Assembly: GCA_001817915.1 (NCBI GenBank)
Contig: MHJJ01000011.1
Location: 17,710-80,121 of the forward strand
Source of the DNA: Candidatus Harrisonbacteria bacterium RIFCSPLOWO2_01_FULL_44_18
Lineage (GTDB): Bacteria > Patescibacteriota > Minisyncoccia > UBA6257 > WO2-44-18
Length of the DNA stretch: 62,412 nucleotides
Reading direction: 5' to 3'
A program made the position numbers and the translations under genes. This document shows positions 4,217 through 59,065 of this stretch, piece by piece. The notes under the pieces are model-generated. The model worked only from the letters and a program-made list of their open reading frames with translations. It had not been told where the DNA came from and searched no databases. Within the stretch, counting starts at the first letter, position 1, and each line of letters opens with the position of its first letter.

Positions 4217-4965
4217 AACATTAAAAGCGAGCTACCGGCAGGAATGGCGCGATATCTCATAAAAAACCGCTCAATATCCAGCCAGCGCAGTAATAAATTA
4301 TTTATGAGAGGCGGTTGAATAATATCCAGAGTATCCGCCGGCCGGCGAATGCCCATTAAAGTCAGAATAAATCTTTTAAGTTTGTGAAATAGGAAAAATG
4401 GTATGGCCGAGAAAACAAAATGACTTTCTTTTTTTATAATAAAGCCCGTTTCTCTTAATTTATCTCGCAGCTCAGAACTTTTATAGCGCCGGAGATGATG
4501 AAGAGCTTCATCATGCTCGCTCCAAAGCCAACGATGCGCGGGAACAGTGATTAATAATGAACCGCCGGGTCTTAGAACTCTCTTTATTTCAGACAGCGCG
4601 CGCCGATCATCCCAAATATGCTCCAAAACATCAAGCGCCATCACTAAATCAAAAGAAGCGGCATCAAAAGGCAAATTAGTCGCGTCCCCCAAAATCAACT
4701 TCTTAAAACCTTTATCGCTAGAAAATTTTAAGGCCTCTGTTGAAATATCCAGGCCCGTCACTTCCCCAAAATCTTTTACAACAAGGATATTCCCACCGGC
4801 GCCGCATCCAAAATCCAAAATTGACATTCTCGACGGCTTTTTCGGCAAATACCTTTCCAAAATGTCGCGCAAAATCTTTCGCCGGCCAACATTCCACCAA
4901 TAAAACTTCTCGCGCTCGTAAAGGCGCTGATATTCTATTAACTCCATGGAATTATTTGTTTTCAA
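4201..4965 (-). CDS. class I SAM-dependent methyltransferase
   Basis: Motif I ILDFGCGAGGN and the post-motif DLVMALDVLEHI; 254 aa. Confidence 0.85.
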   Translation of the reverse strand: MKTNNSMELIEYQRLYEREKFYWWNVGRRKILRDILERYLPKKPSRMSILDFGCGAGGNILVVKDFGEVTGLDISTEALKFSSDKGFKKLILGDATNLPFDAASFDLVMALDVLEHIWDDRRALSEIKRVLRPGGSLLITVPAHRWLWSEHDEALHHLRRYKSSELRDKLRETGFIIKKESHFVFSAIPFFLFHKLKRFILTLMGIRRPADTLDIIQPPLINNLLLRWLDIERFFMRYRAIPAGSSLLMFCRVK

Positions 4966-5035: not shown

Positions 5036-5067
5036 AAAAAAGAGGGGGCGCTTACGCGAACCCCCTC
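5036..5067 (-). terminator. Rho-independent terminator of 5073..6179
   Basis: Minus strand reads GAGGGGGTTCGCGTAAGCGCCCCCTC followed by TTTTTTATT. The stem is at 5042-5067 and the T-run at 5036-5041. Confidence 0.7.
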
Positions 5068-5072
5068 AAAAA

Positions 5073-6179
5073 CTATGCCGATGTGCCGATGATCTGCTCA
5101 ATGACGTCGGCCATCTTGCGAAGCGCGGCGCCGCGCTCTGTCGGCCTCGGGCAAAGTTCCTGCTGGCGTGCGCGCATCTGTACAAACCCGTCGGCTGTGA
5201 GAAGAATCCTAATCTTGTCGGCGAGTTTGCTGGCATCGGCCACGACAAGCTCCGAAAGGCCGCTTCCAACCGCTTCAAGTACTCGGTTGCCACTTATCCG
5301 CTCAAGTATCCGAAACAGCACTTCGAAACCCAAGCTCACCACCGGAACGTTCTGATACGCGCCTTCGATCCCGATGGAGCCTCCGAACTCCACGATGATG
5401 TCAGCGCCGGGAACCATGTCGGACGTTGTGAGAACTTCTCTGCCAACGATTCTTGCCGGCACTGGACTGAAAAAGATAAGCTTATCATAAAGCTTCATCT
5501 CTTTCTGTGTCGCGGCATCGATGGCATAGGGAGTACGATCTCCCGGATGTGTGGCCAAGATCAACTGGAAGCGCTGCCCCTTCGCTCTAAGGAGCGAGAG
5601 TGCCTCCATTACAATGGTCCACGAAGCCATATTTCCAACCCCGAATTGGCCGCCGCCGCCGGCAGCGAGAACAATTTTCTCATCAATCGCAACTCCGAGC
5701 TTCGATCGTACTTCATCCCGAGTGAAACGTGGGAAGGCCATTTCCTCACGGAGTGGATTGCCAGTGCCGACGAGCCGCGCATTCGGAAAAACTTCATGCG
5801 CTACGTCGGCATCCGCCTGCGTTACGCCGAAGTAGAAAGCGGTAGCGGGGGCAAGTTTTTCAAACCAAGCCCCATTCCGCGCTCGCGCCCAGCAACGAGG
5901 GACATCGCCGTAGAAGCCGTAGGGCACTCCAGCAGTCCTTGTGGCTTCGCCAGCCGCGATCTCGGGTTGCGCGAGTTCAAGAGAAGAAGACATCCCAAGA
6001 ATGACAACACTTGCATGAGATGCCGCAAGCGCTATCTCCTCCGCCGTCTTTATCAGCGGCTTCCCTTCACCTATGAAAAGATCCACATCAAATCCGCGCT
6101 CCTTTAGAATCGGCTCCAAACGCTTGAAGCAACCTGAGGGAGCAAAATCTCTCGCGATAAGAACTGCTTTTCTGTTCAC
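5073..6179 (-). CDS. GC-rich Rossmann/GT-B-like protein of unknown function
   Basis: 368-aa minus-strand ORF with a protein-like sequence (AAGGGGQFGVGN glycine loop, alternating beta-alpha pattern). It has a GTG start preceded by GGAGGT at 6185-6190 and its own terminator. The equally long plus-strand ORF 4998..6107 is an Arg/Cys-rich shadow. Confidence 0.6.
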   Translation of the reverse strand: MNRKAVLIARDFAPSGCFKRLEPILKERGFDVDLFIGEGKPLIKTAEEIALAASHASVVILGMSSSLELAQPEIAAGEATRTAGVPYGFYGDVPRCWARARNGAWFEKLAPATAFYFGVTQADADVAHEVFPNARLVGTGNPLREEMAFPRFTRDEVRSKLGVAIDEKIVLAAGGGGQFGVGNMASWTIVMEALSLLRAKGQRFQLILATHPGDRTPYAIDAATQKEMKLYDKLIFFSPVPARIVGREVLTTSDMVPGADIIVEFGGSIGIEGAYQNVPVVSLGFEVLFRILERISGNRVLEAVGSGLSELVVADASKLADKIRILLTADGFVQMRARQQELCPRPTERGAALRKMADVIEQIIGTSA

Positions 6180-46439: not shown

Positions 46440-46485
46440 TTTAATTAATTATTTTAATTTAACTTTAATTTTCGACTCTAATTCA

Positions 46486-46839
46486 GAACCTATCTCAATA
46501 ATAGCTCCCAAACGTGATACTAGTCAATTTTATTCAGAACAAGGCGAGAGGAGGAAACTGTGCTTTACGCACGTTGACGACGACCAACGCAGTTATGAAT
46601 AAAATTGGCTGTGTCCCTTCGGGTTGTTGCTAAAATGAAATAGATCAAGGAGTGACGACGAAATTGTGGTTTTACCACATTGAGGAGGAACGACGCGGAG
46701 ATATTTCATTTTAGCTAACAACGCGTTTAGGGATTATTATTGAGATAGGTTCAAGATTATCCGCTTTACTTCTCGACCGACCCCATTAATCCGCTTGAGT
46801 GAGGTTTAGCAGATTAAAATGGAAAGTAAATGATAATCT
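46486..46839 (+). ncRNA. candidate novel structured RNA (family not recognised)
   Basis: An 18-bp closing helix 46486-46503/46735-46752, nested arms, a UUCG-type hairpin at 46615-46623 and two covarying 38-nt modules at 46548-46583 and 46654-46689. A second hairpin domain lies at 46754-46839. T.G pairs and purine-rich boxes favour the plus strand. Details are in the findings. Confidence 0.45.
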
Positions 46840-46853
46840 CTTGGTTTCTAATT

Positions 46854-46877
46854 AAAAAACTCGCTTTTTAGAGCGAG
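46854..46877 (-). terminator. putative Rho-independent terminator downstream of 47129..47770
   Basis: Minus strand reads CTCGCT-CTAAAA-AGCGAG followed by TTTTTTAATT. Confidence 0.5.
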
Positions 46878-46994
46878 GCCGAAACGGAGTAATCGCGAAT
46901 AATGCTAACCCGATTCGAAATAATGCGAACAAATTATTAGCATTATTTTGCCAAAATTCGCATTATTAGCGATTACTCCGAATGATTCGGCCTC
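46875..46994. repeat. MITE-like palindromic element, copy A (94-bp core 46886-46979)
   Basis: The core termini GGAGTAATCGC / GCGATTACTCC and internal AATAATGC / GCATTATT repeats match copy B at 58968-59061 in reverse orientation, at high identity by eye. An extra outer inverted repeat is GAGGCCGAA (46875-46883) against TTCGGCCTC (46986-46994). Confidence 0.75.
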
Positions 46995-47065
46995 ACTCCG
47001 AACCGTAAATTCCTAAACCTTTTAAGGTTACCTAGGATATAACGAAATATGGGCTATTTTATTAC

Positions 47066-58966: not shown

Positions 58967-58967
58967 C

Positions 58968-59061
58968 GAAGTAATCGCTAATAATGCGAATTACAGCAAA
59001 ATAATGCCAATAACGTATTCGCGTTATTTCGAAACAGATTAGCATTATTCGCGATTACTCC
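58968..59061. repeat. MITE-like palindromic element, copy B
   Basis: A 94-bp element between ftsK and the rodZ-like gene. Its reverse complement aligns along its full length with 46886-46979. Confidence 0.75.
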
Positions 59062-59065
59062 GATT

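Follow-up and report, generated by a model that had tools for sequence, protein, structure and literature searches.

The stretch analyzed here (hereafter, the window) comprises 62,412 nucleotides (nt) of a Candidatus Harrisonbacteria bacterium genome, and its largest non-coding part is a spacer of 689 nt in front of a surface-protein gene. The question raised by this locus is what the structured segment at positions 46486–46839 of the spacer represents. A sequence-only reading, which had rightly singled out the spacer by its size, took the segment for a dedicated RNA of ~350 nt, transcribed from the plus strand and either divergent from the surface-protein gene or antisense to its leader; a CsrA-type sponge was offered as an alternative. 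The comparative evidence points elsewhere: positions 46486–46752 are probably a copy of a widespread, strand-symmetric family of selfish insertion elements of ~270 nt that is not represented in Rfam.

The DeoR-to-surface-protein synteny is kept in relatives, in which the surface protein is 63–70% identical, and none of the four orthologous spacers (364–551 nt) contains a copy of the element (nhmmer, E ≤ 10). By this comparison, the window copy is a lineage-specific insertion. It lies between the native leader hairpin and a conserved segment that contains GTCGAAAA. An assembly artefact is an unlikely origin, the locus being identical in seven independent assemblies; contigs of the same strain all carry the identical spacer. 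Further copies of the element were not found within the window. A dedicated plus-strand RNA or a CsrA-type sponge could draw on the proximity of the copy to the start codon, 46 nt downstream of it, and on the plus-strand fold, which is better by 22 kcal/mol, has four G·U pairs, and holds both purine modules; however, the empty orthologous spacers largely refute such an RNA, the plus-strand bias is a by-product of a rearrangement described below, and relatives of the element occur in unrelated contexts, rRNA and transfer-messenger RNA (tmRNA) genes included, so that the proposed tie to the surface-protein gene does not hold. We consider a dedicated gene extremely improbable. The window copy is probably a passenger without a dedicated function, though it may influence the leader of the surface-protein gene.

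The internal architecture of the insert had been drawn correctly: helix P1, arms P2 and P4 (here, arms A and B), the CCCTTCGGG hairpin, and modules A and B are all recovered at the positions given in Table 1. Each arm carries a 36-nt module near its tip, with two 8-nt purine boxes opposed across a small hairpin; the boxes GAGGAGGA and GACGACGA are exchanged between modules A and B. The minimum energy of the complete 354-nt segment is −132.8 kcal/mol on the plus strand (z = −9.6 vs. shuffles) and −114 kcal/mol on the minus strand (z = −8.9); for the 267-nt element alone, the values are −112.6 and −90.3 kcal/mol, respectively. The four G·U pairs of the plus strand are 46504:46734, 46515:46723, 46518:46613, and 46524:46608. 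The segment 46754–46839, proposed as an inner-paired second domain of the same RNA, has no homologue in the family members; its fold is not significant on the plus strand (z = −1.3) and is better on the minus strand (z = −3.0). What stands of the ~350-nt unit is thus the 267-nt element, the remainder being unrelated leader sequence.

Table 1. Positions of the element, its parts, and two adjacent features in the window.
Feature	Position	Strand	Description
Element (window copy)	46486–46752		267 nt; intergenic, contains no open reading frame (ORF)
Closing helix P1, 5′ strand	46486–46520	+	18 perfect bp (GAACCTATCTCAATAATA), then an imperfect extension (CCCAAACGTG...)
P1 pairing	46486–46503/46735–46752		18 perfect bp, equal to the outer inverted repeat GAACCTATCTCAATAATA
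Arm A (P2)	46521–46611	+	Long hairpin in the family 'sense' orientation; strands 46521–46540/46592–46611
Module A	46548–46583	+	GAGGAGGA-AACT-GTGC-TTTAC-GCAC-GTT-GACGACGA; G·A/A·G/G-C box helix with a hairpin cap
Centre hairpin	46615–46623	+	CCCTTCGGG; sits at the four-way junction, between the arms
Arm B (P4)	46624–46721	+	Inverted relative to the family; strands 46624–46642/46702–46721
Module B	46654–46689	+	GACGACGA-AATT-GTGG-TTTTA-CCAC-ATT-GAGGAGGA
Closing helix P1, 3′ strand	46722–46752	+	
Leader hairpin	46754–46839	−	Native to the surface-protein leader; the former 'second domain'; not part of the element
Second palindromic repeat	46862–47006	.	Unrelated to the element and not part of it; inserted in a conserved terminator-like motif

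The family was brought in with the pattern of module B as a query. A relaxed module pattern has nine genome loci (one genome per species scanned), against about one match expected by chance according to our estimate; the loci belong to metagenome-assembled genomes (MAGs) of Saccharibacteria, Paceibacterota/Paceibacteria (Parcubacteria), Harrisonbacteria, an unclassified 'bacterium', and an Acidobacteriota with 65% GC. A second pattern has more than 120 metagenome contigs among the matches listed. Almost without exception, the elements measure 265–277 nt end to end, and even the Acidobacteriota copy, with 277 nt and 69% GC, adopts the same fold. Full copies share one layout, that is, P1, arm A, the centre hairpin, and arm B, with zero unpaired residues at the junction. 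The closing helix has 22–25 bp, the sequence of which is free while the pairing is kept; the centre hairpin has a CCC/GGG stem in all canonical members and a variable loop (TTCG, GAA, TGCG, or GCAGC). The window copy falls within the family range of length (265–277 nt) and of the closing helix (~20 bp or more). Positions 4–156 of the family nhmmer profile, covering P1 and arm A, match its plus strand at 46485–46637 (E = 7e-15), and its P1 is homologous to the P1 of members L132, L122, L010, L015, L030, and L100; the closest relative, L132, resides in a different genomic context.

Several members depart from the common layout. Single-arm forms of ~160 nt are seen in L020, L027, L060, L070, L094, and L099, and arm A is wholly missing in L037. 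In L028, L034, and L037, arm B has extra hairpins that differ in sequence but share one insertion point, immediately 3′ of the GAGGAGGA box; that of L037 is a perfect palindrome of the (CCTGCCTGCCG)n type. In a minority clade (L112, L044, L046, L115, and L061), the order of boxes in the first arm is GAC...GAG, not GAG...GAC; here, the two arms are true inverted repeats of each other, and a long rod fold would be fully Watson–Crick at the boxes, while in majority members the rod fold would place G·G or C·C at every third box position.

Covariation was assessed in an alignment of 43 non-redundant members (A1). RNAalifold predicts 67 pairs in this alignment, and compensatory double changes are seen in 65 of them, in agreement with the original claim of a real, covarying structure. 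The fraction of paired cells is 86%, vs. 64% in shuffled alignments and 35–44% with the partners slid; double-change cells number 679 vs. 229 in shuffled alignments; and the covariation score is 0.595 vs. 0.21, the observed value being reached in none of 500 shuffles. P1 occurs in at least eight unrelated sequence types that are always paired, and all 17 of its aligned pairs have changed on both sides. The inner hairpin of the module covaries freely between the fixed boxes (GTGC/GCAC, GTAC/GTAC, GCGG/CCGC, GTAG/CTAC, and others). Generally, helix sequences vary, while the internal loops are conserved. Judged by these substitutions, the fold of the single strand has been under selection.

The boxes themselves follow the repeated scheme G·A, A·G, G-C in most members. 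The G·A steps are replaced by Watson–Crick pairs in L035, L097, L010, L087, L031, and L129c1, the G-C pairs of the boxes become A-T in L061, and the scheme is lengthened in L011. On the evidence of such replacements, the box region is a real helix, as had been proposed from the window alone. The compensatory exchange of boxes between modules A and B, also noticed there, turned out to be a feature of the family.

In canonical members, arms A and B hold their purine modules on opposite strands; hence, either strand reads as a 5′ purine arm, the centre hairpin, and a 3′ pyrimidine arm. The window copy differs in that the purine module of its arm B is not on the strand opposite to arm A. Profile positions 151–233, corresponding to arm B, match the minus strand of the window at 46712–46633 (E = 8.5e-16), and the identity to L132 rises from 216/273 (79%) as is to 234/273 (86%) when arm B of the window copy is reverse-complemented. 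By these alignments, the window copy is a rearranged member of the family with an inverted arm B; the inversion plausibly occurred via recombination across the arm's own inverted repeat of 14–19 bp. Because of the inversion, both purine modules of the window copy are on the plus strand, and the inversion together with the four G·U pairs accounts for the better plus-strand fold. Two modules of identical geometry on the same strand, as originally described, are thus real in the window copy but peculiar to it.

Across the family, no strand is preferred by the fold: the difference between the plus and minus folding energies of 62 members is −0.2 ± 8.6 kcal/mol (26 members against 35). Orientation relative to neighboring ORFs is random (upstream, 14 same and 16 opposite; downstream, 15 and 19), and no preference for a promoter on either side of the element is seen in family members. 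Counts of G·T and A·C in helix pairs predicted on both strands are nearly equal (105 vs. 93). A larger excess, 203 G·U vs. 105 A·C, had been considered as an indicator of the strand of action and was rejected, as it is inflated by structure prediction on one strand. The strand argument of the sequence-only reading is therefore correct as to the four plus-strand G·U pairs of the window copy, but it does not generalize, since canonical members carry one purine module per strand and both strands fold equally.

Such symmetry would also be expected if the element acted as DNA, either with its nested palindromes forming a cruciform or hairpin, or with the GASGASGA boxes as duplex binding sites, the partner being a protein of the nucleoid, of replication, or of recombination. 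The absence of linker residues at the four-way junction, the near-equality of G·T and A·C mismatches, and the arm inversion of the window copy, which indicates DNA-level recombination across the arm repeats, agree with this possibility. However, the pairing is kept while the sequence drifts, which is not expected of duplex-DNA protein sites; the replacement of G·A by Watson–Crick pairs points to a folded single strand; and the uniform orientation in rRNA genes (see below) is left unexplained. We therefore regard a function at the DNA level as quite unlikely.

The distribution of copies among host genes is that of an insertion. Copies are found inside 23S and 16S rRNA genes and in rRNA leaders (L029, L071, L037, and the third copy of L012). 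The element distinguishes 23S genes that are nearly identical: L108/L088 and L117 carry one and the same subtype of it at two different sites, each site being empty in the other; the site occupied in L012/L074 is empty in both L108 and L117, and on removal of the insert the uninterrupted sequence is recovered without any duplication. Inserts of L012, L014, L074, L081, L088, L108, and L117 reside at the tips of rRNA helices, with their ends forming a long stem. By eye, the 23S sites of L081, L012/L014, L117, L088/L108, and L012/L074 are presumably near Escherichia coli positions 225, 280, 900 (tip of helix 38), 1580, and 2405 (tip of helix 88), respectively, and we take them to be distinct from the classical sites of intervening sequences (helices 25 and 45). 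The tmRNA gene of L092 (648–1276, plus strand) is interrupted by an element at 715–987, which lies immediately 3′ of pseudoknot 1, ~37 nt short of the tag reading frame (GCAAATCATTCACCTGTATACGCTTACGCCTAATAA); its Rfam tmRNA match has E = 1.9e-15, with a score below the gathering cut-off, and ARAGORN misses the gene in L092, also after in silico removal of the element. Nested copies are present in L084, L056, and L090. By the comparison of filled and empty sites, copies have been gained and lost between close relatives, and the element is tolerated in the loop tips of essential structured RNAs.

Some further observations concern individual hosts. The 23S gene of L012 (664–4958, minus strand) is 4295 nt long vs. 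the 2925-position model; this contig has two full copies within the gene and a partial third one just upstream of its 5′ end (1672–1922, 4246–4508, and 5050–5187). Paired copies on a contig bracket housekeeping genes: hisS, HIT, yqeY, ybeY, and ftsA; dnaG and rpoD; rmuC. The commonest subtype of the closing helix, GGGAGCAGGATTCGAACC...GGTTCGAATCCTGCxCTCC (L033, L042, L052, L101, L104, L096, L136, and others), resembles the T-arm and acceptor end of a tRNA paired to its own complement, and real tRNA genes adjoin several copies (L037, L080, and L035). Identification of the GGGAGCAGGATTCGAACC subtype as a tRNA or tmRNA was rejected: ARAGORN finds nothing there, and a real tmRNA gene is seen only in L092.

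The exact restoration of the 23S sequence upon removal of the L012/L074 insert invites the suggestion of a new self-cleaving or self-splicing RNA, in which the two internal loops would dock, much as those of the hairpin ribozyme do, and release the element from its host RNAs. The family resembles the hairpin ribozyme and viroid-like RNAs in its four-way junction, two neighboring arms of which have conserved internal loops, in the size of ~270 nt, and in the shared design of both polarities, and copies in rRNA genes are found in the sense orientation only. At the same time, no Rfam ribozyme or intron matches at E ≤ 10; the end nucleotides are not conserved; the loops read as regular helices of G·A and G-C, not as a catalytic core; the copy in the tmRNA gene is oriented the other way, and intergenic copies randomly. 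The family also differs from hairpin-ribozyme and viroid-like RNAs in being chromosomally encoded at a fixed permutation. Self-excision by a ribozyme thus appears very unlikely.

Either single strand, be it RNA or single-stranded DNA, is predicted to fold into a closed four-way junction without linkers, made of the closing helix, a 5′ purine-helix arm with a hairpin cap, the tiny centre hairpin, and a 3′ complementary pyrimidine arm, by which the opposite strand likewise begins with a purine arm. If the element is a selfish and mobile insertion, as we favor, it could be tolerated by its hosts in that a transcript of either orientation would fold by itself into an autonomous, helix-closed domain. 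The closing helix of 22–25 bp would be long enough for RNase III, by analogy with 23S intervening sequences and Correia/NEMIS elements. The conserved G·A module, one per strand, may be what a putative factor acting in trans recognizes when it copies or processes the folded strand, much as in REPIN/RAYT systems. A bolder version of this scheme would have the family represent a new class of nucleic-acid elements, mobile or processed, defined by the strand-symmetric four-way junction of ~270 nt with tandem-G·A arms, moved or excised via recognition of the folded strand by novel machinery or by its own catalysis, and found in rRNA, tmRNA, and intergenic DNA from the candidate phyla radiation (CPR) to Acidobacteriota; we offer it tentatively, as a possibility less likely true than not.

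Several results weigh against a selfish mobile element. Target-site duplications are not seen, direct repeats in the flanks being at 2.80 vs. 2.78 ± 0.11 in shuffled controls, and the element ends are not conserved in sequence across the family; classical cut-and-paste transposition is unlikely for these two reasons. Palindromes in the flanks are at the control level. No mobilizing enzyme is encoded beside or between copies, where only housekeeping genes are present, and a tblastn search of ~0.9 Mb of flanks for transposases of the IS200/IS608 type (Y1) found none, this being a weak test. The copy number per genome is apparently low, and the copies are old and divergent with the fold kept, which equally fits a host-useful RNA. 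All 13 of the 13 rRNA-associated copies, at no fewer than eight sites (≥8), have the same orientation, and three G·U pairs of the family are conserved on the rRNA-sense strand; together, the uniform orientation and the G·U pairs point to a strand-specific constraint at the RNA level. In addition, TA is enriched near the 5′ end of the rRNA-sense strand only (35/54 vs. 44% background), a mild effect which the symmetric model does not explain.

The uniform orientation, the conserved G·U pairs, and the TA enrichment are observations on which a structured RNA module useful to the host could be based, for instance, a processing or insulator domain, or a protein-binding G·A scaffold, that was duplicated and embedded in rRNA precursors. 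Conservation of the fold, the size (265–277 nt), and the internal loops across phyla and over 40–69% GC would suit such a module, and variable helices combined with conserved internal loops are usual in functional RNAs, miniature inverted-repeat transposable elements (MITEs) showing the opposite; the copies in rRNA leaders listed above would fit as well. Yet the orientation relative to neighboring genes is random and no consistent promoter is present; presence is variable, both among rRNA genes that are nearly identical and at the locus of the window copy; copies are nested, and folding is strand-symmetric; the tmRNA gene is interrupted in the orientation opposite to that of rRNA copies; and, apart from its flipped arm, the window copy is intact in the assemblies of this strain. 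On balance, a host function seems rather unlikely, and insertion of a selfish element remains our preferred explanation.

Comparison with known systems shows partial similarity to several of them. Intervening sequences (IVS) of 23S rRNA occur in Salmonella, Leptospira, Coxiella, and other bacteria, the end stem being a substrate of RNase III. Like these, and like the inserts of CPR rRNA genes, the family is ORF-less, resides at rRNA helix tips with its ends paired as a long stem, and is patchy among close relatives. Unlike IVS, it is also found in intergenic DNA, where the window copy itself lies, and in a tmRNA gene, and it has a conserved 270-nt interior with the four-way junction and helices lined by G·A. 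CPR rRNA genes contain many uncharacterized insertions that are neither introns nor ORF-bearing and are suspected to be IVS-like; such unexplained cases make up about half of the insertions (Tsurumaki et al., 2024; PMC11270868).

With MITE-like palindromic repeats (Correia/NEMIS, ERIC, RUP, and the Rickettsia elements), the family shares the small size, the non-coding palindromic nature, and the filled and empty sites in relatives. Rickettsia palindromic elements are even found inside tmRNA and RNase P RNA genes, and Correia/NEMIS transcripts are cut by RNase III (Delihas, 2008; PMC2229807). In contrast to such repeats, target-site duplications are lacking and a matching insertion sequence was not found; conservation is lowest in the terminal repeats, which covary among at least eight types, and highest in the internal loops; and the family spans phyla at a constant length. 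Classification as a MITE was therefore rejected: of the defining features, filled and empty sites in close relatives are observed, while target-site duplication and sequence-conserved terminal repeats are not, and no insertion sequence lies near the copies. The possibility raised in the sequence-only reading that the segment is just a nested MITE without conservation is true in part, as it is a mobile insertion absent from orthologous loci, but the fold is conserved across phyla.

REP/REPIN sequences (mobilized by RAYT, an HUH enzyme of the Y1 type) and the ends of IS200/IS605 are similar in having two inverted hairpin modules with one recognizable hairpin per strand; the likeness further includes selection on the single-strand fold, the absence of target duplication, and old, persistent copies. 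The differences are that the modules of the family are not paired with each other but lie on different arms of the four-way junction, one at each tip; that there is no GTAG-type motif (none is seen in the family alignment), the copy number is low, and orientation is not biased relative to neighboring genes; and that no RAYT or Y1 gene is seen in the family flanks, a weak test covering this part of the genomes.

The family gives one concrete and alignable class to the unexplained inserts of CPR rRNA genes, with further copies of the element in intergenic DNA and a tmRNA gene. For a bacterial repeat it has an unusual design, as helix sequences are free, the tandem-G·A internal loops are conserved, the length is constant, and the strands are equal; it may thus be a tractable model for the spread of an element through its folded strand, with neither terminal-repeat transposases nor target duplications. 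A family profile would improve annotation of CPR rRNA and tmRNA genes, and would prevent copies from being taken for locus-specific regulatory RNAs, as had happened here. A prior description was not found in the literature, and the family apparently constitutes an undescribed and uncatalogued group of structured insertion elements, ~270 nt long, which is widespread in CPR bacteria and spans phyla.

Searches against Rfam 15 agree with the original impression of no known RNA family: nothing matches 46486–46839 at E ≤ 10, canonical members at E ≤ 1, or the whole window at the gathering threshold. Pattern scans of viral contigs yielded chance coding matches only. Three specific identities were rejected. 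A CsrA/RsmA sponge is unlikely, as the GGA triplets form strands of the box helix opposite to GAC boxes, in place of the hairpin loops or single-stranded linkers of such RNAs, and half of the boxes are GAC; a CsrB/RsmY/RsmZ match in 46486–46839 is likewise absent from the Rfam results. The cores of integron attC sites, R″ (RYYYAAC) and R′ (GTTRRRY), flank a folded bottom strand; most members have AATG...CATT, not AAC...GTT, beside the hairpin. A kink-turn was rejected on sequence.

The remaining observations concern the surroundings of the window copy. In the leaders of L137 and L139, a long hairpin occupies the position of the segment 46754–46839, and its closing pairs are conserved (ccgtc..tacct..gccca / tgggcgg..tagacgg). 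Next comes a conserved GTCGAAAA box, directly upstream of the start codon. The orthologous spacers L137, L138, L139, and L140 and the minus strand of the window at ~46853–47003 share the motif gagtgaggcc-[variable hairpin]-ggcctcgctctaaaaagcgag-TTTTTT, in which ggcctc has two possible pairing partners, gaggcc before it or the terminator stem after it, an arrangement resembling that of an attenuator or a terminator. The window has the second palindromic repeat (Table 1) inside the variable hairpin of this motif; the repeat has the core CGGAGTAATCGCGAATAATGC...GCATTATTAGCGATTACTCCG and z ~ −10 on both strands. Another copy of this repeat, 87% identical, is at 58967–59065 of the window, and it also occurs in L103 (~1574–1627), a Harrisonbacteria MAG; one copy exactly fills an intergenic gap. 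Spurious Rfam matches to miRNA precursors are drawn by this palindrome.

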